Both the position numbers and the translations under genes were made by a program. Under the pieces are notes generated by a model. The model searched no databases and was not told the DNA's origin. It saw only the letters and a program-made list of their open reading frames with translations. DNA of 63,853 nt, filler included, from Hausera hauseri (Eukaryota), in the NCBI GenBank assembly GCA_046269625.1. It is 12 parts of 12 records of this genome, joined end to end, with 100 filler letters (N's around TTAATTAATTAA, not from the genome) between each part and the next. Parts side by side here need not be neighbours in the genome. Positions count along the whole stretch, not along the records: positions 5,508 to 10,970 come from JBJURY010249070.1; 11 more parts are not named here. One strand, written 5' to 3'. Of the stretch, positions 1,837-61,135 are shown one piece after another. Numbering within the stretch: the first letter of the stretch is position 1; every line of letters starts with the position of its first letter.

Positions 1837-4474
1837 CCCTTTCTTTACCAACGGGACTTCAGAGTCCCAGTGGTAAATTGCGATTAAACAATCGATTTGG
1901 ACTTCTGTACGGTCACTTTACCAGCGGGACTTTGTGGTCCCAGTTGGAGGAATGTGATTTATTGAACGCACCCTGTTTTGATTTCGTATTTACGACTGAT
2001 TTTCCTGTCAACTACGGTGTTTACTTCCTGAATCACGAATGGTTTGTAAATTGTTATTTACAGTGATAAAGCCTCATTTTGCACTAAGATTCGTATTCGA
2101 ATTTGCTGATTATTTATTGATATTGATACGATTGATGAGATTACATGACTAGATATTGAGTTAGTGTTGAACAATGCTTTTAAGTGCATGGGACTGGGAA
2201 GTCCCGTTGGTAAAGTACGTCGTTTCATCGTAAGAGTTCCTTATCAACCTAGCATTGTGTATTTGATATGGAATACCGTTCCCTGTCAGTAGTAAATTAT
2301 TGGATTTAGATTTAATTTGAATCAGTCTTTGTTAAAAATCCAAAATACAGTCATTTGAGGTACTGATACCGATAATTGGCTGATAAATATGACGACCATT
2401 CGTCTTGCCAACTCATAAAACCGACTCATTGAACCAAACTCTAATCATAATCCTATGGTAGTACCCACTCAGTAGGCTGACTGAGAGACAAAATGATGTG
2501 TATCAGTAACCAACATATGAACAAGTTGAATCTCGACTTTTATCAATTTTGCAGACAGTTTTTTTCATGCAGGTAAAATGGCTTTTTCTACATCCTCATT
2601 TTATAGTTGTAAGCATCAGGCAATACCAGTTGAAATACCAGATAATGCAGATTATACTCCTGTTGATGATGAGAGTGATTCTTCTGCATCCACTGATACA
2701 GAAGTCCAGCCTGATTCTGAACCGGAAGATGTTGACGATGAGATCAGTACACCAAGCACATCTCGGCATGTGGATTTAGGTGCGACAAAGTGGTGTAAGA
2801 AAGAGCTGCAAACCAAGGAGATTGAGTTTCTGGGTGAACCATCTGGGCCTGCTCAGGAGGAATTCGCTACTTGCAGCACATCGATCGACTATTTTACGAT
2901 GTTTCTGTCTGATGACATTGTAAATAATATTGCTGAACAGTCCAATTTGTATGCAGTTTGGAGACAACTGAAGTTTGGAGAGAAGCCACTGCCATCTTTG
3001 CAAAAAGAGGAGCTCTTGGTTTTTTTTTGGAATCAATTTACTGATGGGATACCACTGCTTCCAATCCTATACTCTCTACTGGAGTACTCAGACTGATCTT
3101 GGTGTCGATTGCGTGAAAGAGACCATGTCAAGAAATCGATTTTCGGAGATCATCCACACCTTGCATGTCGCCGATAACAGCAACTGGAGTAAAGAAAACC
3201 CTGATCCTCTCTACAAGCTACGACCACTTAACTGAGTTGAATGCTCAATTTTAGCTACTTTTTGCTGCAACTTAAGTGCAGTCCATTGACGAGGCGATGA
3301 TACTTTTCAAATGTCGCAGCTCAATCAAACAATACAATCCAATGAAGCCGATAAAGAGAGGCTACAAAATTTGGTGTAGAGCTGAGACCAATGGCTACAT
3401 TTGATGTGTACCAGGGCAAGTCTCTGGTTATTGATGCTCCTGCCGACATTGGACTTGGTTGGCAAGCTATCGTGAATATGTCGGCATCAATACAGGATAA
3501 GGGCCACGTGCTGTATTTTGATAATTATTTCTCCTCGGTCCCTTTGTTGAACTACCTAGCAGAACATGGAATCTATGCATGCTGCACGGTTCAAGATAAA
3601 CAGATCAAGCGTGGGGACTCTGACTGGCGTGTATCAGATAAAGGAGTGGTGTTCCTGAAGTGGAAAGACAACCGAGTTGTACATATGCTGTCAAGTGCAC
3701 ATGGCACTGCATGTGGCAAGACAACACGGCGGCTAAAAGATGGCAGCACCATTGAAGTGAGCCAGCCAGAGTCCATTGCAGCATACAACAGGAACATGGG
3801 TTGCGTAGATCATGCCGATATGCTGCACTCTCTGTATGGCTTTAACAGAAAGTCAAACAAAAGGTGGCATCGACTGTTTTTTGCATGACTGATATCACCC
3901 TGATAAATTCATACACTGTTTACTGTGATCTGGTGGAACGAATTCCGTTGCTGGGTTTTGTTCGATCTGTTGCGACTGGCCTGATGGCGTTTCGATTGTC
4001 AGAAACTGCTCAGGGAAAGAAACAAAAGCGGTCATTGCCGGAAGCTGCTACATCAAACAGAAGCAGTCACTGGCCAATGTTTGGTGAGGACAGGGGTCGC
4101 TGTACTCAGTGTTCCAAACTGAAACGCGAGTCGAGGCCATACTCCACTTGCAGCTTTTGCAAAGTTCATCTGTGTTGCAACAGCAAGATGAACTGTTTTT
4201 TTGACTATCATGAAGTTGCCGACAGTTAGAGACTGATAGTGCTGTTAGCAGCTTGCTTACTGAACTGTGACTGGCTCTTGGCATCAGTGTGACCTGTGTA
4301 GATTCGGATGTTGTACTTTACCGTCGGGACTTTTGAGTCCCGGTTATATAACTTTATTAGTTATATAAATTTTGCTAAAACTTTGCAACTGTATGTTATA
4401 CTAATAGTATTTACATAGAAAATGTGTGTGGAGTTGAAATATTAAAGGTGCAAATACTGTTGGTAAAGAAAGGG
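1837..4474 (+). mobile_element. Full-length (2.64 kb) piggyBac DNA transposon, decayed
   Basis: Perfect 16-bp TIRs CCCTTTCTTTACCAAC (1837-1852) and GTTGGTAAAGAAAGGG (4459-4474); TTAA TSD at 1833-1836 and 4475-4478; internal transposase. Confidence 0.97.
2578..4229 (+). pseudogene. piggyBac (PGBD-like, DDE_Tnp_1_7) transposase with frameshifts and stops
   Basis: Acidic N-terminus; MSRNRF, IDEAM, YNPMKPIK, YFDNYF, YNRNMGCVDHAD motifs; C-terminal Cys-rich CxxC..CxxC..LC..CF..YH domain; split over at least four ORFs. Confidence 0.95.
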
Positions 4475-5507: not shown

Positions 5508-5790
5508 TCGACGAAGCCCTATACGTGTCTCCTAAAGTGGTATAAGCGTGGAGTTTGATAGGAGTTGGTGCATTATTCGCTATTGTGATCGGCACACGAC
5601 CGGAGTGTACTCTCGTAAGTACGTTGCTGAGTGTTATATTTGGGTTTAGCGTTTCCCTTGGTTCAAAATATATTGGCTGATCATCATTTTGCTGAATCTG
5701 AGCGTAAATTATTATCACTGTTCTTGGTGGAATATTTTCATCTACTGGTATCCACACTTCTCCAAATTTTCTATCTTTAGCATTTTTCAC
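5508..5790 (-). CDS. Gypsy-type post-protease region (dUTPase-like beta fold), truncated by contig end
   Basis: IPPRTVIII..FEP..LSNVL....GRVPITIANN...PIKL...TTLG resembles the segment between PR and RT in Ty3/Gypsy pol; in frame with the protease. Confidence 0.65.
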
Positions 5791-5849
5791 GCCTTTGCTT
5801 GGCCTAATTTCTATTAATTTTCCTGTTTGTAAATCAATCGCTATATTTG

Positions 5850-6150
5850 GTAGCCTTTTTAGTAAATCTCATCCTAGGACAACGTAGTCAGTTAATTGTT
5901 CCATAACTGCAAAATCATATCTTAATGTTTGCCCAACTAATTGGACTTTTGGGTTCCATTTAAACAACGGTTTTGACATTTGGCCAAAAGCTCCTGTGCT
6001 GCCTGGGTCTTTCGTAGATGGGGGGTATAAGTGTCCTCTTAGCGTTTGAGGTATCGGGTCGTTTTTGATATAGGATATCTCAGATCCTGTATCGATTAAT
6101 GCATAGACTTCCCAATCCTCAAGACTAATTTTGGCGAATGGTCTTCCTTC
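5850..6150 (-). CDS. Retropepsin-type aspartic protease (polyprotein domain)
   Basis: VYALIDTGSEISYI active site; C-terminal VVLG*DLL matches the ILGRDLL motif, with TGA likely from CGA. Confidence 0.9.
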
Positions 6151-6844
6151 GATTACGGTTCCAAAGCAGTTTGATGCCGCTTTTGAATGTCTGGTGACGG
6201 ATACTTTGTGTCCGTTTATTGTTACTTCTGGGGCAGATATTATGTTTTTCGATAGTTGTCTTAATTCTCCATTTGGATATAATTTATTATTTTCTACGTG
6301 CAATTCTTCCATTTCATGAGTACTAATTAGAGGTTCCCTATTATTAGTATGTAATTCAGTATGTTGGAAGGTTTTAAATCTTGGGTTATCCCAGACTGTC
6401 GAACTAGTTTCGATATTCTTCGCTTCTCTTGGTGAGTATATCATTTTAGGGCCTTCCGCGGACTGGCGATAACACATTTTCCGTAAGATTCCATATCGTT
6501 TCGTTCCTTCATAAGGGTCTTCTACATTAATTGTCCTTTTATAAATTTCTGTCTGATATGAACTCGTGGATCGTTTGTCGCAATCATCGTAGAATGGAGC
6601 GGTAGGAGGTAGCATGGGCAGTGGCGCTTTAACGACAGAGTACATCTTATGTCTGTTTATTCCCGAAAATGCTTTTCCTCCCTTAGGCTCATCATCATCT
6701 GAATTGGTCCTTCGTGTAATGTGTTTTGCAATTTTCCGTTTCCGTAGAAATATCGATCTTCCTTTTCTTTTACGATTGTAATACCCTACATGGCGTTCTA
6801 CGTCCGATTTCCATCTACTCTCTTCGTATGCTTTCAGGAATTTT

Positions 6845-8660
6845 CCACAAGGCGTTACGATCGCGGTCAATATTTTACAAGAAAATCCAGTTAATGTAAA
6901 TATCTCATATCCATTTATTACAGCTTGGATGACGGCCTTAATCATTTGGATCAGAAAATATATTGCCAAAAATCCTGATGCTGCCTGTCCGAATATCAAA
7001 AATCTTCCCCAAATTTTATAGAGTATCTCTGTTGTTACTCTCTGGTAGTGGTTTACGCCAAGTAATGATTCCCATTTAGCTTGATATCTGGTGTCGTCTA
7101 CTACAGACGCCATTGCCCGATTTAGCTCATGTGTTTGTTGTCGTGGAAAAGCGAGGAATTGTCTGAAGGCCTCGATTTCCTTTGGTCTGTATATACCTTT
7201 CGATGAAGTGTCTTGGAATTTGTCATCTGTAATCCCTTTTGCTAGATTTGTCCCCGTCAGTTTGCTGGGAGCGGCAGTAATGCCTCCATTAGGTAAACTA
7301 ACCCAGTCGGTTTCGCTACGTCTAAACATGGGCTCTCCCAGGCTTGCTTTACAATCTTTAAGAGGGGTTGGTTGTGTCGCATTATCTAATAGCACTCTCG
7401 TCAATGGCATAGCTAATCTTGGAGTATTTTGATAAATAACAGGAAGCTCTTGGATGCAACGTTTCTCTTCTACGTTGATGGGTACTTCTCTCTTTTCGCA
7501 TTCATAGGTTAGCAACACTTCGCCCGTAACTCGACCGAAAATTCCTTCTCTCATGGGAATAATCGGAGAGGCTAATTCCGGGTTTGCATATATGAGAGCC
7601 ATTTTAGTTCTCATAATTTCAGTATCCAATTTGCAGTCGTTCATAATCATTTTATGGTATAATTCCGTTATTCCGACCTGTCCTTTATAATAGAAGTAAT
7701 CGTCTCTATTTTTCAGATAATCTTCAATCCGAACATCTTGCGTTTCCAGTTTATAAGTTTTCGCGTTTATCTCCGTTTCAGCTACAAAAAATGCTTCATA
7801 GTTTGTAGCGAACATTACTACGTCGCAGTGAGTCATCATCTCCTTCTTAATAAATTTTAGTCCGTGTGTGTCGGAAATTAGTATGGTCGGTGTTGGGTGC
7901 TGCGATACATCTTCGCGTGTTCTCGAATTAGTCTCCAATTTGTTTACGTATCTTCTTCCGGCGGTTTCATTGAACTTTAGATCCTTAATTTTAATAAAAT
8001 TACAATTTCTTCCAGAAGGAGGTTCCCATATTATGACCGAGCTTCTGAAAGCACATGTTCCGTCCTGTATATGACATTTCTGGTTCTCGGTGTATAGTTT
8101 TGTGACACTATGAAACATTACTTTTTGTGATCGCATTTCTGCTTCATAGAAATCCACAACCACGACATTTGATTCTAATCCTTTTCCCGTGTCATATTCT
8201 GCTCCATTACAATGTCCGCTATGCATATCCAATCTTCCAGCTACTACTTTGTATGCTCTGATTATTTTTCCGGGCTGCATCTCCAGTTGCATGCTGTCCC
8301 ATTGTATCCTTCCGGTTTCTTTAGCTTGTTTGCAATGTTGACGCTCTAAGTTCATCGGAATTAAGGGAGTGGTGGGCTTAATTATGGAGGAGTGTCCATG
8401 TATTAGTCCACAGTGAAAAATGCTGCGTGACCGCTTTAGCATGCATTCCATACCATCTAACGATACCAATTCTTGTTGCTGATACAGAAAGTAATTTTTC
8501 TCTCGCGTTTCTAGTTTGTGTGGCCTCGCATCTTCGCAGGCTTCTAGGTCTATTAAAGAATATCTTTGTCCTAATTTAAACTTGTCACAATCGTAGACAG
8601 TTACTGCACTTATGTGCTTTATCAACATCATCAATGTAAGTAAACTAATCAGCCAATTCG
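6845..8660 (-). CDS. Chuvirus (Jingchuvirales)-type envelope glycoprotein with signal peptide and TM anchor (polyprotein domain)
   Basis: WLISLLTLMMLIKHISA|VTVYDC signal; YDC..YSL.D...C, FHCG..HSS, GEVL...C, C.QELPV, GIY...I..FR.FL.FP and WGRF..FG...SG TM motifs match my recollection of chuviral G. Confidence 0.88.
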
Positions 8661-9377
8661 ATTCATTTTTCCGACCTCAAACGTCCGATATTGTCAGACT
8701 ACGTAATATATCGTCGAGCTTATTGTTGCCCCGTTTGTCTTCTTCCTTATCAAATAATCTTGTCCAATTTACTTCGCAAGACATTCTTCTTGCCGCTTTC
8801 CGTGCTAAATTTATTGCTCGGTTAATTTCAGTTTCTCGGTTCGGGTTTATTTTGACGGCTAAGTACAGCAAAACTTTCCTCAATTCTTCATTCGTGTTTT
8901 CTACCATAATCTTTTCTATTACCGACTCATCGGTTAAGCTACTTTTTGATAGTTTGAAACGTGAACTTTTCATTGTTTTAGCGGCGTCGAAAATTATCTT
9001 TTCCTTATCGTCTAATACATCCCCTCGAAAACTAGAATAATTCACAATTCGTACTAATTTTTTTATCAACTCAGTTAACTCCTCGTTTTCGGTGCTAAGG
9101 GTCGGAATCGACATTTGTCTTAATTCTTTAATTAGCTCTCCATTGTAATCCACTTCTTCTCGCATCTTCCTAGGTCTGCCGACTGGACGTTTCGATCTTG
9201 GACCTTTAAGGTTTGCCTCGCTTAGTGGTACTAAATTTATGTCGTATTGTTCTTTATCTTCGTCTGTTTGTAAATACTCAAAATATAGTGCCGCATCTGG
9301 AACTCCCATAACTTGTCCGACGCATTGCTCTGCTATGGCTTTACGTGTGGCTTCTTCCTTTGTCTGTTCATTAGCTA

Positions 9378-9595
9378 TTATTACCACTATTCGATTTGCT
9401 TCGTCGGGAATGATCCCGACGTCTATCAATTGTTTTAAGTCGTTTAATATTCTACCTCTAAATTAAAATCTATAATTCAACTCATTTGTCCCTCCATTCT
9501 TTACTAGCCATTCTCTTACATCCCTTACGTAAGAATGTGTAGTCAATTCGCATTCTTTTTCGTCCATCCATTCGGATGACACCATAATTTTCATC
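9378..9595 (-). CDS. Ubiquitin-like domain within the polyprotein (spans stop at 9463)
   Basis: MKIMV..VRDVREWL..G..NYRF*FRGRILNDLKQLIDVGI aligns with ubiquitin MQIFV..[31 protein letters not shown]. Confidence 0.72.
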
Positions 9596-11070
9596 GTTAC
9601 CTCAGGTTTAGCCCTTAAGGTTTTAGCGTACTTCTTTATCAACAGTTTCGGCACCGTACTATAAATTGTGTTTTCGCTAGATAACTTAGTTAAAGTTGGA
9701 ATAAGTTGTCGTAGTTTATTCTCAGCAATATTTACGTTAATCAATTCCATCAAATCTTTTTCAGTTAGGGCTGAGTCCAGTAGCATTTCTACTTTAATCT
9801 CCTGTCCTTGGGACAAGTTTCTTTCTCGTTTAACTGCACGAGAGTCATAGGTTTTTCGGCAAGTTTCGGGTTTGTTTCCAGCATCTGGAAGTCGGTAGTC
9901 CACTAAAACCGTATTGGCTCTTTGAATGTTCTCCCGAATTTCCTTTAATTTGGGTTGTATTTCTTTCATTTTCGTATTTCGGAAACCTACTCCATTTCCA
10001 CAGGCATATTGTATCGTTTTTAGTAATTCACCGAATTCGTTAGAATCAATCAGCCCCTTTTGATGATAATCTGTCAATTCAAGAATCACATCCTTTTGCC
10101 ACCGTTGTACAAATTCTTGTTTATTTTTAATCTCCGATTTGGTAAAAGCATACTTATTACGATAGACTGTGAGCTCTTTTGTTAATTCATCTAACCTTAT
10201 CGCTTTTTGTTTCGTTTTGATAGCTGTTTCTTCTACCTTGTGTATTTTGGGCATCAATTGCCTCATCTGCTCGTCACTGATTTCTGCCATTTCCATCAAT
10301 AAATAAGCTAACTCGTACATCTCATTTATGACCTTTGAATCAAGATTCATCGCATCCGACACTTTCTTCATGAATTTGTGTTCCTGAAAGCTAAAATGTG
10401 GATCGTTTCCTATTTCTATCAACTTGGTATGGAAATTCTGGTCTGATCCGGCCATCCATTCTTGAGGTTTCTGTAAGAAACTTATTGCATCGGTTAACGT
10501 ATCTCGGTATCCTGGACAAATGTCCATAATTTCGATATCTTGTGCAGAAATTTCGTCGATTGTTTTTCCAGTTAAGTATTAAATCCCTTCTAGCCGGACA
10601 ACCCTTAACTTTGAATTTACATCGTGAATTATATTCCGTTTCTCCGTAAAGTTCGTTTCTTCGATCAATTTGTAGATTCCCTCCATCGTCGACACTTCTC
10701 GTTCCTTTTCCATAAATTTTAGTTGTCGTAGCGCTTCAAATTGAGTACAGATATTTATTTCTATTCGCAACGTGGCTAAATTATGCGCACTTTCCTCTAA
10801 TTGCTGCTTCACCGTTGTCTCGCTCTGCGGAAATTCCGTTTTACGATCTTCTACCAATTTGATTAGTCGCGTTACTAGCTTGGACCATTCCGTCAATTGA
10901 TTTGTAATTACAGGCTTCGCCATTACGGCTTTATCTAACATCTTGTATGCATCTTCTAATTCATCGTCCGNNNNNNNNNNNNNNNNNNNNNNNNNNNNNN
11001 NNNNNNNNNNNNNNTTAATTAATTAANNNNNNNNNNNNNNNNNNNNNNNNNNNNNNNNNNNNNNNNNNNN

Positions 11071-11234: not shown

Positions 11235-12250
11235 CTAGGCGGTAGTTGGATGATTCATATTTTCCCCATTGACTTTTCTTTTTAAATTTATGTTTAAGAG
11301 TAATAGTTTCTTCTTTTGCCACCTTCCTTTTTTTCTTGTTAGATCAACGAGGTTCTGTTCGTTAGGTATCATAGTTAATGAGGGTTCAGACTTGGTACTT
11401 GTTGCAGGTTCTGGTTGGAGAACTGGTGGTTTTACAATTTGATCAATATCGATCGCTGTCTCAAATTCCAATTTTGTTATGCTTGAGTAATCATTAATGT
11501 CCAGTAGTTCACGGGCTAGTATAACCGTTTCATCGTCTGATAGGACGAGCGACGTAAATTGTTTGTTTGAAATTGTATGTATTACTGCTTTAGATTTTAC
11601 TATTACATCCTCGTTTTGATATTTCTTCAGGGTGTTGTACATGTTAAGCATAACCATTTCCTTATCTCTTGTCCTTGTTGGATATGTAATGTTATTAAAT
11701 TTCAAAAAGACTTGTTTTTGAGTCAATGTTTTCTTTGGATTAATCTGTTCATTGTAGTATAAATCTCTGATTCCTGCTATTTGGTCAATATTAAAGATGG
11801 CGATTTGGGAATTGATATTGAATATATTCATTCCCACTATCAGTTTTCCTACTAATTCATGTCGAATAAAAGGCCAAATTTGATATTGATCGGCTTGGCC
11901 GATTAAATCCGCTTCTCTTATGCCTGTTGTTTGTGTATTTTAGTTATCTATACGTCCTCGCGGAGCAGAGTTGATCAAAAATAATTTTCTTATCCAAATT
12001 CATTATAGTGTTTTCCACGAGAGTAGCTTCGGAACGATTGTCTTTAATTAGATATGCGACATTAATAAATACAATGACTATTTTATTTCTTGAAACTGTA
12101 GATACTCTAGGAAAGGAACATCTTTTCTTCAATTGTGATTTATTTGGAAGAGGTAAACTAAAAATCGGTGTGTCACATTCTGGATGGGGGATCCTTTCTC
12201 TTCTAATAACTTCAATATATAGTGTTACGGTTAGGGTGGCCCTTATCCGT
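11235..12250 (-). pseudogene. Degenerate DEDDh (REXO/ISG20-like) exonuclease-fold accessory ORF of the LTR element
   Basis: IVFINV..TIMNLDKKIIFDQLC/PRGRIDN*NTQTTGIREADL..GKLIVGMNI..IRDL compared with REXO VAIDCE..SIVN..YD.FVKP..IVDYNTRFSGVTEADL..GKILVGH..IRDT; one frameshift and one stop. Confidence 0.62.
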
Positions 12251-12929: not shown

Positions 12930-13563
12930 TTCTCACAGAAGTTACTGTTTCATTATTGTTGTCTTTGAAAGATAATCAATGGCAATGACCAATCAAAAAG
13001 CCGCAAAAAGGATTTTAGAATTTGAACCTAACGCTGCAAACGAAACGGATAATTACGGAAGAAATTTTTTACATGTTGCTGTACAGACTCTAAACAAAGA
13101 AGTCGTATTTTTCCTTATTCAAGTCAATGCAAATCTCAACGCTCGAGTTGAAGATTATTTAATGCACACTCCGTTACAACTGGCAGTTATTTCCCGGGCT
13201 CCTGAAAATATGATTAGAAGTTTAATTTTAGCTGGTGCGAAAATCGATGATGAAACGTTTGAAAAGCAAAATTTATTACACCTTGCAGTCACACATAATT
13301 GATCATATTTGCCTCATGATATTTTTATAGGACATCAGGGCAATAATTTCAATACGCCCTTGCATCTCGCTATCAAAAGTGACGTGAAAGAATTAATCGA
13401 ACCCTTGTTGATTAAATCATCAAGTTATATCGGTTTAAAAAAATTAAGGGGTGAAAATATTTTGCACATGTTAGCTATACATGCTAAAGAAAATGTTATT
13501 GTTCTTTTTTCCCTTATTATGGATGTTTATCCTCTTCTTCCGCTCGGTGAGAAGATAATTTAG
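12930..13563 (+). pseudogene. ANKFY1: Rabankyrin-5 ankyrin-repeat fragment
   Basis: KAAKRILEFEPNAANETDNYGRNFLHVAVQ..VFFLIQVNANLNARVED..TPL matches recalled ANKFY1 KAAEAILKRESGAAEQVDNKGRNFLHVAVQ; internal stop, fragment only. Confidence 0.8.
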
Positions 13564-13829
13564 GTTCGGTATTATTTACTTTTTTACCTTTGTGCCAGTT
13601 ACTACAGAAGACAATTTGAGTGCTATATTGAGATACGTACAGAAAATACCATTACAATCTAGCTGGTACAACTCGAATTTTGCAAGTGTCCATAATTTAC
13701 TTAATATTGATTTGTCTTCGAAATTTCTTATTACTGACATAGTTGACATGGTTGTTGTTAATTTCAGTTTTAATGAATCGTTCGTTTATAATGTTTGTTG
13801 TACATTTAATTCCAGTAAAATACGAATGT

Positions 13830-14805
13830 TACATAAACGATTGAGATACTGTGTCATACTTCCTAAACGTGTGTCGTTTTATGAAGGAGTGTCCTGTGAC
13901 AATTTTCCCATACTTTTACTTGTTCCTTCCAATACTGACGCCATGTCTACAAATTTAATATGGAAATTTCATACTCATGATGGATTGCATTTAATACTTT
14001 TAAATCGTGACAAGTTTCAAAAGGCTTTCGTCAAATCAATATCTTCAATTTGGAAAAATGTATTTAAGTCGGACATTCATAACGAAATTGAAACAAATAG
14101 TTTGTCCCAAGTCTGGCGTCAGTTGTTATCGTTTCTTAATAGTTCAAATCAATCTAACAAAGAGTCTCATTTACAATCAATAATCGACAGTCTTGCTGAA
14201 GAATACAACCATTCGGTATTTACTAAAGTTCTTCAAGAACTCAGTTTTTCATGTTTCAATCGGAAGTTCTGTTTACGGAGTTACTGTCAGCTCGTGGTGT
14301 TGTCGTAGATATAGAAATCTCGGCGATATTTCCTACGCCAATAGCGATCTCTATTCTTCATTAGAAACATCGTGGAAACTATTCCATTTTCCCGAACCGT
14401 CGAAATTCAATAAAGTAACCATTTCAAAGGCAGAAATTTCTCATTGTTTTCGTCAAAATGATTTGTGGAGTACTTGGTAGTGGCCAAATGAGCTTAGCTA
14501 AAAAAATTACGCAACTTGCACAGGATAATAAGTTCTGGTCCGTGATTTCACCAACAACTATTGAAGAGGCATTGTCAAGCATGGAAGACATTTTGAAAAA
14601 GTTTCAAACCGTTTGGAATATGAAAGGTCGAAAACAATTGAGAATCATTTTGTTGTCGCCACCATTTTGCGGTTCCTTCCAAGCTTGTCGACAATTAAAA
14701 CGTGTCTATGATCAGAAACAATTTACAATAGGAAGTATTTGCATATGCATCGATCAACACAGTGCTCATTTGAACAACTATGAATTCACGATTCCAGAAT
14801 TACCG
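13830..14805 (+). pseudogene. DNAAF9: DNAAF9/C20orf194 (Shulin)-like fragment including CobW-like P-loop region
   Basis: CVILPK..FYEG, KFQKAF...SSIWK, ICGVLGSG..LA, FTIGSICICID motifs resemble C20orf194; frameshifted. Confidence 0.6.
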
Positions 14806-14819
14806 GATTCCTACAGACA

Positions 14820-15125
14820 TATCAGCCAAGGATCTTCAGCATTCAACATAATATTGTCAATCATAAATGTATTTTTGAACAACATATTGACTTTGTACCC
14901 GGAGTTTTCGGTTTTCCTTCAACACCGTTTACGTTGTATAAAAATATCAGTGGTAAGTATACGAAATTGAAAAGTAAAAATATAACAATAGAAAGAAAGA
15001 ATGTAAATTTAACCTTTGCACGATTGCATATCGCATTTAATAATGTTACTGATATTGATGAGGGAAAATACCTCATCGTGGCCAAAAATATTAAAGGTCA
15101 GGGAAAATTTTCATTTTCATTAGAA
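14820..15125 (+). pseudogene. Immunoglobulin I-set domain fragment
   Basis: V.G.P..F.LYK...LHI.FNNVTDIDEGKYLIVAKNIKG contains the D.G.Y...A.N..G motif. Confidence 0.65.
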
Positions 15126-15307
15126 TCTGTAGCGAATACATAATAGAGTGGCCCAATTATCTCATTCATTCCCTGTACATAACTGTGGGCCTTGTTTGTT
15201 TTACAGAATATAAAAAGCACCCGTTGAACGACTTCCCAATGCATTTCTTTGTCTTCCCTAAACGGTTTGTAGGTATTTGAATTATAGTGACTATAATCTG
15301 ATCGCAT
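15126..15307 (-). pseudogene. TBC1D13: TBC-domain RabGAP fragment
   Basis: HWEVVQRVLFIFCKTN..SYVQGMNEIIGPLYYVFATD nearly matches recalled TBC1D13 HWEVVERILFIYAKLNPGIAYVQGMNEIVGPLYYTFATD. Confidence 0.88.
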
Positions 15308-15601
15308 ATCAGGTACAAGAACTTTCGGGTGTAGACCTTTCTGAGTTTCAGAAGAACTCTGAAAGTAAAAGCATATTAATTATATATCTGTTATAAACCT
15401 AATGTTGAGGAGATTACATTTAAAAGTAAAGATACTTTGGCGTATGTTTTATTTATTTGTATATTCTATTATTTATTTATTCGTTTTATGAAAAATTGTT
15501 TNNNNNNNNNNNNNNNNNNNNNNNNNNNNNNNNNNNNNNNNNNNNTTAATTAATTAANNNNNNNNNNNNNNNNNNNNNNNNNNNNNNNNNNNNNNNNNNN
15601 N

Positions 15602-25782: not shown

Positions 25783-27800
25783 GTATTTCATTATAATACT
25801 ATGGCAAACATCCGGCTCATGGATTGGAGCCAAGCAATCTCTGTAAAATTTGCACATCTAAAACAAAGCACTTATTTGATGAAGAGCACAAATAAGAAAA
25901 CTTACCATTTCGCAGAAGTGAATTTGGAAATAATGAAAAATATAGCCATGTCAACTTGTACTGTCTAATTTTGATAATTGATACATTAAAACAAATATAA
26001 GGAAATATTTTTAATGGTGCGGTAAATTCATGCGTTTGTTTTAATTCACCAAATGCATGAACTTGTCAGGTAATTATGCCATCGTATTGCTTGTCATTGT
26101 TTTAATGCATGAAATGATTTGTGTCGGGGCGGTTTCCATATATTACGAATCTATTAAAGCTATCAGATTCTTCGAATAATGCTTGCTTGATCGAATATTT
26201 GAGTTCTATTCGATATTTCTTCAAGATTGAATAATGTTTTCGATCATCTGACACCAGATTCGTATTTCCACATAAGCTTTCCTATCCATGTACGTTTAAA
26301 GATTTGTCGAATTCCGTGTGCTTCACCTTCAAAATCACCACTATATCTTAATCAATTTAACAAGTCATTTGCATTTAATGAGAACTTTTAGAATACGTGA
26401 AAACTTTGTTTTTTATACACAATACCGCACTGTACCGCACTAATATTCATTGCCTGATAGGTTTTCCATCATGGGAAATCGAATGCCGTCATAATATTCT
26501 TCAAATAATGCTTTCTTGACTGAGTTTTCGAGTTTGAATAGCTAAGTATTCGACTTGTAAGCACAATTTCGAACATCTAACATCATATTTCGATTCGACA
26601 TGCATGATTTCCTATCCAGGCCCGCTATTACATTTATCGATTTCAGCTTCATTGCGCTTCGAATGCACATTTTGCTTATTTCGAAATATTGATTTTATGC
26701 CTATATAGTACGGTTTCGTGGAATAATTTTTACGTATGTGAAGGTTTTCGAATACGAGGAATCGATTCCCGCCATCAGATTTTTCGAACAGTTCGATATT
26801 CGTGCCAAAAAATTTTCGAATTTCGAGTTTTTGACTCGAGATTCGAACTCGGCATAACAGATTTCGTATCTGTCCCCGCTCAATGTTATATAGAATTTTG
26901 ATTCCTTAGAACGTAAAAAACATGCTAAATCGCCAATTTCTGCACTATGGATCGATATTAATCTATAAATAATCAAAAAATTTAAATTCTAACTGCACAT
27001 TCACATAATACACCATGTTTCCTTTCGATTGCACCCGGTCATATGTCCTAATCATCTATATTGGAAATATCGGAAATTCGATCTTATTGATTTTTTCACA
27101 CTTGCACACATGTTTTTGCACTGCACGCCATATATCAAGGTGCATCTCAATGTGCTCTATCTAGCTGCACTTGACCCAGATCAATTCCATCAATCCTACG
27201 CTGCACAACTGCAAAAGTGTGAAAAGTGAAAAAGTGCCCTGGCAACCGTATCCAAGTGCACACCGCACTCGAGTTGTGCACTGAACAATACTACATCAAG
27301 TGTTGCACCTGCCTGTACATGTTGATTATTGATTTAAAATTTATAGCGGAAAGGTTTGTGGTGGTTCTAAACCAATTGGAATTATTCGAAATCCAATCAA
27401 TCGGTTTAAATTCTAACTGCACATTCATTTACAACATCAAGTGCCCTTGCGATTGCACCCGGTCCCGAGCCCCAAAGATCGATTTTTAAAAATTCAAACA
27501 TCCAATATTATTGAATTTTGCACACTTGCACATTTACTGAACACTTTCACTTGAACCAATCGATGTGAACTGATGTGCACTATCGATTAGCACTTTGTCG
27601 CGATAGATTCGATCAATACTGCACTGTGCTATTATCGATTTGTCAAAAGTGCAAAAATGTGCATAGCAACGGTGCCTGGCGACACCGTTGCTAGGCACTA
27701 TATGGATCAATAATGCACAGTGTGCACTATTGATCCGCACATGTGTAAAATCGATATCGATTACCCCCCCCCCGCGATGGGCCGAACCGCAATTTTCAAA
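25783..27800 (-). repeat. Palindrome-rich non-coding arm upstream of a Polinton pPolB (probable long TIR/subterminal region)
   Basis: 25783-27380 is a diverged reverse complement of 59580-61190; 27520-27800 is a reverse complement of about 30775-31036. Confidence 0.8.
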
Positions 27801-59579: not shown

Positions 59580-61135
59580 CAAGTGGGACCGAACCGCCAC
59601 AGGCCTTTCCGCTATAAATTTTAAATCAATAATATCAATATGGCGCATATACTGGCCGGTGCAGTACTTGATGTACTTTCGACCAGTGCAACACTCGACT
59701 GAGGTGTGCTCTTGGATACGGTTGCCAGGGCACTTTTCACTTTGCACATTTTTGCAGTTGTGCAGCGTAGGAGTGATGGAATTTATCGGGGTCAAGTGCT
59801 ACTGGATAGTGCACATCGAGATGCACCTTGGTATATGGTGTGCAGTGCAAAAACTTGTGTGCAAGTGTGCAAAAATCAATAATATCTAATTTCCGATATT
59901 TCCAATATTAATGATTGGGACATGTGAGTGAGTGCATTCGAACACAAACATGGTATAGTATATAAATGTACAGTTAGAATTTAAATTTATCGATTAGATA
60001 TCGATTAATACCGATCCAAATTGTAAAATTTGGCGAATTAGCATGTTTTTAGGCTGTAAGGAAGCAAAATTTAATACACCATTGAGCGAAGACAGATAGG
60101 AAATCGACTATGCCGAACTCGAATTTCGAGTTGAAAACTCGAAATTCGAATATTTTTGAGCTCGAATATTGAAGTTCGAACTATTCGAAAAATCTCACAG
60201 TGGTAATCAAATTCCCGTATATGAAAACCCCATTGAACATAAAAATTATTCCATGAAAATGTATTATATATGCACAAAATCAATATTTCGAATTAAGCAA
60301 AATGTGCATTGGAAGCCCAGTGAAGTGAAAATCGATAAATCCAATAGCGTGGCTTGATAAGAAAGTATATATGTCGAATCGGAATATGGCATCAGGTATT
60401 CGAATTAGAGCTTATAAGTCGAATACGTAGCTATTCGAACTCGAAAACTCGGTTAAGCATGCATTATTCGAAGAATTTAATGACGGAATTCGATTCCCCA
60501 TGGTCGAAGACCTATATGGCAATCAGGGTTAGTGCGCTGCAGTGCATTGCAGTTTATAAAAATAAGATTTTTTCAATATGGTAAAAGTACTTAATAAATA
60601 CTAAGTAATTCTTATATTGATTAAGTAATTGAGGTGATTTTGAAGGTGAAGCACACTGAAATCAATAAATCTTTAAGCGCACATGGATAGGAAAGTATAT
60701 GTGGCGAATCCGAATCCGATGTCAGATATTCGAATACATTATTCGAACTCAAATACTTAGCTATTCGTACTCGAATATTCGGTCCAGCATGCATTATTGG
60801 AAGAAACTGGTGGCTTTAATCGATTCCGCTTACATTTAAACCTATTCGAGTATGGCGCCACCACATATTTAAATCATTTGATGCATTAAAACAAACGCAT
60901 GATGTTGACAATACAACATATTGGAAACAATATGCAATGTCAAATTTCCCTCACCATTAAAATTATTTCCTTGCATGTGTTTTGTTTTACTGCATCAATT
61001 ATCAAAATTAGACAGTGCAAGTTGACATAGCTATATTTTTTTCATTATATCCAAATTCACTTCCGCGAATTATAAGTTTTTTATTTGTGCTCATAAAATA
61101 ATTGCTTTGTTTAGATCTGCAAACTTTACAAAGAG
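59580..61135 (+). repeat. Palindrome-rich non-coding arm upstream of pPolB
   Basis: Diverged reverse complement of 25840-27380. Confidence 0.85.

Follow-up and report, generated by a model that had tools for sequence, protein, structure and literature searches.

Candidate ESCRT late domains in the envelope tail of a Gag-Env-Pol retroelement and its chuvirus-type relatives

A PTAP and a LYPNGELRQL motif lie in the tail of a chuvirus-type envelope protein (Env) encoded by a retroelement of Hausera hauseri. We consider it probable that they are ESCRT late domains, predicted to bind TSG101 and ALIX, and that the Env tail, not Gag, would give the scission signal. An earlier note on this DNA had called the two motifs together notable, and in the relatives they are far above chance: the motif classes are kept across distant relatives whose tails cannot be aligned, with at most 1–5 occurrences for permuted controls.

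The envelope tail of a decayed Gag-Env-Pol element

The window, that is, the whole stretch of 63,853 nt that was analysed, comes from H. hauseri (assembly GCA_046269625.1). It consists of 12 contigs of 4.3–6.2 kb (1-63853) separated by spacers of 44 N, 12 bases and 44 N; features on separate contigs are no neighbours. Outside the element-bearing contig were seen a fragmented DDE transposase (2530-4229, plus strand; Pfam DDE_Tnp_1_7, E=5e-24 for 3355-3885), which we take to be piggyBac-like, a 234-codon open frame without Pfam match (11235-11939, minus strand), ankyrin-like and other host-gene-like fragments (12976-15379), a long tandem array with a 32-base period (39129 to about 41630), and two diverged copies of one dispersed repeat (26268-27532 and 59734-60827), 80–86% alike, in opposite orientation and on different contigs.

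The features of the element are the following.

5508-10970, minus strand: element-bearing contig (JBJURY010249070.1), internal Gag-Env-Pol fragment of Ty3/gypsy type, both element ends missing
8680-10968, minus strand: pre-Env frame in three stop-separated pieces, without visible Gag core or zinc knuckle
8676-5872, minus strand: main ORF, a stop-free piece of 935 codons with Env, tail and protease
8596-8655, minus strand: internal signal-peptide-like hydrophobic segment (hydropathy up to 1.92), aligning with its counterparts in relatives P0001 and P0002
7009-8595, minus strand: class III fusogen ectodomain, herpes gB-like and chuvirus-type (PF24664, AlphaFold2, Foldseek)
6907-7008, minus strand: main membrane-spanning segment, predicted (19-residue hydropathy 2.06)
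6841-6903, minus strand: a second hydrophobic helix, weaker and containing Lys and Cys (hydropathy 1.48)
6151-6828, minus strand: Env tail linking anchor to protease, about 217–226 residues, predicted disordered and cytosolic
6733-6774, minus strand: basic patch RKRKGRSIFLRKRK, in the tail frame
6595-6606, minus strand: PTAP, predicted TSG101-UEV binding motif (match to the P[TS]AP consensus)
6253-6282, minus strand: LYPNGELRQL, long LYPxxxLxxL form of the motif predicted to bind the ALIX V domain
5872-6147, minus strand: aspartic protease of retroviral type, in frame with Env (DTGS at 6093-6082)
5509-5868, minus strand: Pol-side frame past the stop, resembling the protease-to-RT region of relatives and running to the contig end

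A single minus-strand frame spans the contig, with stops at 10579-10581, 9463-9465, 8677-8679 and 5869-5871; the contig stops short of any reverse transcriptase (RT) and of any recognisable Gag core. Given these four in-frame stops, the copy is unable to make the polyprotein itself. It is dead, and the mechanism proposed below concerns intact members of the family. The family is highly repeated: 80% identity or more to this contig is reached by 16,040 contigs in run X1 and 1,281 in run X2. Searches with alignment A1 gave 86 pattern hits in viral contigs and 137 in metagenome contigs, none of which was confirmed as a related locus.

The pre-Env frame gave no Pfam match below E=0.07, has no CCHC, and contains no late motif over its 771 residues. 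It weakly resembles the spacer of P0002 (E=0.007) and is probably the Gag-Env spacer; since the 771 residues hold no Gag core, Gag proper and RT would lie outside the contig. An AT-hook-like motif was seen in this frame (8680-9462, minus strand; Pfam E=0.076), and P0002 has a comparable GRP-centred basic motif upstream of its Env.

The main ORF matches Pfam Monjiviricetes_fusion (PF24664) over residues 10–616 (E=2.4e-68). Its AlphaFold2 model, built from 130 sequences, has a mean pLDDT of 73, and the top Foldseek match of the model is the gB of VZV (7k1s, E=4.6e-15); a PDB search by sequence gave no match. The signal-like segment would be cleaved ahead of the ectodomain, and the second hydrophobic helix more likely lies on the membrane surface than crosses it again. 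For the protease, the Pfam RVP match (E=0.013) is under the cut-off, and blastp against the protease region of P0012 gives E=2e-13; the stop at 5869-5871 interrupts the domain near its end.

P0001, P0002 and P0003 are relatives at 28–32% identity, each a single polyprotein. In P0001 and P0002 the order is zinc knuckle, spacer, signal-like segment, Env, tail, protease, RT, RNase H and integrase, followed by an additional C-terminal membrane protein, while P0003 begins within Env. Gag, Env, protease, RT and integrase thus form one reading frame in the relatives, and the order RT-RNase H-integrase, with its Pfam families, is typical of Ty3/gypsy elements. Measured against GAG-ENV-POL errantiviruses, the window copy has a gB-type class III Env and an env upstream of pol; with four stops its reading frame is not intact, and it is at best a decayed member.

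Several side features of the polyproteins were recorded. P0001 (HBK71150.1), a full Gag-Env-Pol polyprotein, carries a Flavobacteriaceae MAG label and is probably misbinned eukaryotic DNA. The post-integrase membrane protein has its own tail (C-terminal 150 residues) in P0001, P0002, P0012, P0163 and P0166; a Tyr-x-Pro-Pro word occurs in that region in four of the five, and P0002 has there a second LYPxxxLxxL. Two successive protease-like domains follow the Env tail in P0002, P0012 and P0017. P0002 further has ankyrin repeats between its two protease-like domains and a ubiquitin-like domain ahead of Env.

The earlier note had placed PTAP (6606-6595), LYPNGEL (6282-6262) and a basic patch in the stretch between membrane anchor and protease. 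All three were recovered there in one minus-strand frame, the patch at 6774-6733 and the two motifs lying between the hydrophobic segment at 7008-6907 and the DTGS at 6093-6082. LYPNGEL extends to LYPNGELRQL (6282-6253), which fits the long ALIX-type pattern, LYPxxxLxxL. Most of the tail is modelled with a pLDDT below 50 and without secondary structure, to which a lack of alignment depth may contribute. The long basic patch RKRKGRSIFLRKRK was not found in this form among the relative tails listed.

When the tail was shuffled (217 residues, 20,000 shuffles each), the frequency was 0.43% for PTAP, 0.085% for LYPxxxL and 0.035% for its longer version. P[TS]AP and LYPx(1 or 3)L together appeared in 0 of 100,000 shuffles, in line with the earlier view that the two together are notable. 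In the six frames of the 63,853-nt stretch, P[TS]AP occurs once only, as the tail PTAP, and LYPx(1-3)L four times. A sceptical reading would take the motifs as chance matches in a proline-rich linker, or the tail as luminal after two membrane passes, so that it never meets ESCRT. We hold this to be very improbable; it does draw on the fact that the short motifs were picked after the fact, and because of this the real test lies in the relatives.

Among copies of the same family, 40 of 1,528 differing places were seen and none falls inside either motif; five of the 40 lie in or beside the tail (6249, 6394, 6621, 6756 and 6778). In run X1 the PTAP codons are passed over by two single contigs, with joints at 6519-6672 and 6576-6679, and several contigs skip the stretch between PTAP and the LYP motif.

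Late-motif classes in the tails of distant relatives

An exhaustive profile search, built on alignment A1 of the Env region, gave 2,559 cluster representatives at E<=0.001, and the best 150 of these were used. Unlike this search, word-indexed protein searches for relatives were partly without any match; Atlas hits, all below 0.9, served as leads only. P0002, P0003 and the window copy brought the set to 153 proteins. Set aside were 18 without a usable tail and 7 redundant cluster members; 135 remained, namely 15 Env-protease polyproteins (window included) and 120 stand-alone glycoproteins, or 134 without the window.

Over the C-terminal Env region, pairs of these proteins have a median identity of 27%. 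Tail-to-tail alignment, for four tails compared directly, gave nothing significant (best E 0.07), and because the tails do not align, conservation was assessed by motif counts. Tails within 90% clusters are almost identical, hence uninformative.

The counts use patterns fixed after the first tails had been viewed, and shuffles that handle related proteins as independent. Read in this way, and with the window excluded, P[TS]AP is present in 26 of 134 tails (2/14 polyproteins and 24/120 stand-alone), the shuffle expectation for the 120 stand-alone tails being 1.0 on average and 5 at most (1,000 shuffles). Similarly, [LMIV]YPx(1 or 3)[LIV] is present in 56 of 134 tails (7/14 polyproteins and 49/120 stand-alone), with a shuffle mean of 1.35 and a maximum of 7 for the stand-alone tails. 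Both motifs share one tail in 14 of 134 cases versus a shuffle mean of 0.014, and any of three late-motif classes was found in 72 of 134 tails versus 6.4. PPxY is weakly enriched in stand-alone tails (7/120 versus 3.5 expected). The motifs are spread widely across the tree: when the set, window included, was reduced to 43 groups at 40% identity, P[TS]AP occurred in 13 groups, the ALIX-like motif in 25, and both in one tail in 9.

The exact words matter as well. PTAP and PSAP (13 each) top the PxxP words of the tails, the next word reaching 5, and look-alikes are scarce (PATP 1, PASP 1, PTSP 1, PSTP 0). [LMIV]YPx[LI] occurs in 43 tails, and with any other residue replacing Tyr or Pro the count is at most 1; the reversed dipeptide PY is not enriched in tails. 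In ectodomains P[TS]AP is found at 0 per 1,000 residues. The PTAP-type motif precedes the LYP-type in 11 of the 14 double-motif tails. Short and long ALIX-like forms alternate between relatives, and the nearest relative in the tree, P0001, has IYPLL and no PTAP. By the patterns used, all three motif classes are absent from 62 of 134 tails, which favours chance; against it, independent relatives bore the prediction out and permuted-motif controls stayed near zero, so that the chance explanation is largely refuted.

The YP motifs could instead be YxxPhi endocytosis or lysosome signals read by AP adaptors, with PTAP incidental. The common short form [LMIV]YPx[LI] does fit YxxPhi too, and YxxPhi is found in 77 of 120 stand-alone tails versus 38 expected. 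Against this, Pro follows Tyr in 73 of 131 YxxPhi sites, and YxxPhi without Pro at +1 is unenriched (30/120 versus 34 expected; 11/15 versus 9.0). LYPNGEL itself has Gly at +3 and is no YxxPhi, and P[TS]AP is enriched independently, about 24-fold. We therefore regard the adaptor explanation as quite improbable, and return to TSG101 and ALIX as the predicted partners.

Twelve of the 120 stand-alone proteins were looked up, 11 of them having been picked for P[TS]AP. The four that are named are all chuviruses: Fushun oxya chinensis chuvirus 1, Neuropteran chu-related virus OKIAV150, Guangdong red-banded snake chuvirus-like virus and Soybean thrips chu-like virus 2, and the glycoprotein of each has a PT/SAP and then a LYP motif. 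The other 108 probably mix viruses, retroelement envelopes and endogenous copies. The pair is thus present in chuviruses, which have no Gag, a point absent from the earlier note, and so it is the glycoprotein and not Gag that the motifs accompany. A further candidate explanation, a p6-like remnant of Gag that stayed downstream of an env insertion, was rejected, as the chuvirus glycoproteins without Gag bear the motifs too.

Tail topology and the Gag side

Topology was judged from hydropathy in a 19-residue window, and not from a trained predictor. By this measure the first segment reaches 1.6 or more in 15/15 polyproteins and 108/120 stand-alone glycoproteins, the second in 2/15 and 13/120. 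A second hydrophobic segment behind the first speaks for a luminal tail; against this, that segment is weak and contains a charged residue in 14 of 15 polyproteins. Cys is nearby in 14/15, Lys and Arg are commonest after it, and in the stand-alone set it is no more amphipathic than the first. N-glycosylation sequons are enriched neither in tails nor in ectodomains, and are for this reason uninformative on topology. One pass after a cleaved signal would leave a cytosolic tail; the relatives would require this too, as their in-frame RT and integrase would otherwise end up in the lumen. The cytosolic tail proposed earlier is thus the most likely arrangement, judging from the single strong membrane segment and from Pol being in frame in the relatives.

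Late-motif density was compared between regions of 16 non-redundant polyproteins. The tail has 13 motifs in 1,779 residues, Env 1 in 8,987, the Pol side 11 in 18,445, and the upstream regions, many of which are incomplete, 2 in 7,510. Only one of seven zinc-knuckle-bearing upstream regions has a late motif. These densities support a shift of the putative late domains to the tail. The earlier suggestion that the tail may act in place of Gag has indirect support from the relatives, their upstream regions being nearly motif-free; as the contig itself ends before a Gag core, the statement that Gag lacks late domains rests on those relatives.

Budding, sorting and the place of the tail among known systems

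On the favoured reading, in which the tail motifs are late domains, the internal signal segment would thread Env into the secretory membrane, so that Gag would stay cytosolic ahead of Env, and the tail and Pol cytosolic behind it. Env trimers would cluster the tails. PTAP would then recruit ESCRT-I and the LYP motif ALIX, and both would bring ESCRT-III, which would cut the bud neck. The tail may also tether Pol inside the bud until the protease releases it. Motifs that travel with the glycoprotein are seen in the distribution given above, and the direction of transfer may have been from Gag or matrix onto the fusogen tail.

HIV-1 p6 lies just before the protease region. Retroviral late domains are known in Gag or matrix proteins, and p6 has PTAP and then YPXnL, binding TSG101 and ALIX, according to excerpts of PMC8402826. 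Whereas the p6 motifs are in Gag, those described here are on the tail of a membrane-anchored fusogen, about 105 residues apart, and their binding is predicted.

Engineered particles provide a precedent. As given in excerpts of PMC10121106, an ESCRT/ALIX-binding region on a spike tail, the EABR of CEP55, gave particle release without Gag, so that ESCRT recruitment from a glycoprotein tail suffices in this artificial system. EIAV p9 worked more weakly (about 10-fold less), and HIV-1 p6 or Ebola VP40 1-44 on the spike tail gave little or no release (PMC10121106). Because p6, which has the same pair, failed on the spike tail, the sufficiency of the PTAP/LYP pair is doubtful.

The p6 result also suits another explanation, namely that the motifs bind TSG101 and ALIX as cargo-sorting signals while scission is signalled elsewhere. 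The glycoprotein would be routed to multivesicular bodies, extracellular vesicles or lysosomes, which would control surface fusogen levels or choose the assembly site. The motif statistics in the tails fit this equally, E-cadherin is loaded into vesicles in a late-domain-dependent way (excerpts of PMC9511404), and the 21 lysines among the 226 residues of the tail are possible sites for ubiquitin tags. However, late motifs are rare in the Gag-side regions of relatives, as counted above, and excerpts of PMC10826744 list for piscichuvirus genomes N, G, L and a small ORF4 only. With so few Gag-side motifs and so small a gene set, no other origin of the scission signal is apparent, and we judge sorting without scission, though the main rival, unlikely, keeping the budding function as the preferred reading.

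GAG-ENV-POL 'errantiviruses' of Ty3/gypsy type with an HSV/gB-type ENV have been described in Nematoda, Bryozoa and Platyhelminthes (Chary and Hayashi, PMC13524379, excerpts, where Sacco et al. 2022 is cited for them). Like this element, they have a gB-like envelope ahead of pol. Compared with that description, as far as the excerpts give it, the relatives analysed here have Gag-Env-Pol in a single frame, in which the tail with the motifs immediately precedes the protease. The terms 'late domain', 'ESCRT', 'budding', 'cytoplasmic' and 'fused' are all absent from the main text of PMC13524379.

The same PF24664 domain is found in the G protein of chuviruses (Jingchuvirales) and in the chuvirus-derived env of BEL-Pao 'Anakin' elements (PMC7642597), a text without 'late domain' or 'budding'. 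Chuvirus G is a stand-alone protein whose tail is about 60 residues long (median 61), in contrast to the tail of about 225 residues which in this element runs into the protease. The tails of Hartmanivirus GP2 and hantavirus Gn have been proposed as matrix surrogates in viruses without matrix protein; in excerpts of PMC6261641 this proposal is speculative and the motif is a predicted ALG-2 site. Unlike in those tails, canonical TSG101 and ALIX motifs recur here across a large, unrelated fusogen family.

Among the matches listed in a search of openly accessible literature, none was found to describe late domains on the glycoprotein tails of chuviruses or errantiviruses. Excerpts of PMC9430581 and PMC6394706 do not treat such tail motifs, nor did a term look-up in PMC10826744 give a report of them. 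The element type and its gene order are known, and canonical late domains on the tail of this fusogen family appear to be unreported.

A wider claim is put forward only tentatively, that the tail of the chuvirus/gB-type errantivirus fusogen family may be a natural matrix surrogate, whose late domains would drive budding without late domains in Gag or matrix. If so, one membrane-threaded Gag-Env-Pol chain would anchor Gag, display Env, recruit ESCRT and package Pol, and the assembly of such retroelements would differ from that of retroviruses. How envelope-carrying invertebrate retrotransposons exit cells is stated as unknown outside Drosophila in excerpts of PMC13524379, and excerpts of PMC10826744 give chuviruses N, G, L and at most a small ORF4, naming no matrix gene. 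Late domains in the tail would be a single, directly testable answer to both retrotransposon exit and chuvirus budding. They would be a natural instance of a viral fusogen with late domains, which until now has been shown mainly by engineering, and would give independent evidence of selection on these envelope genes for particle release.
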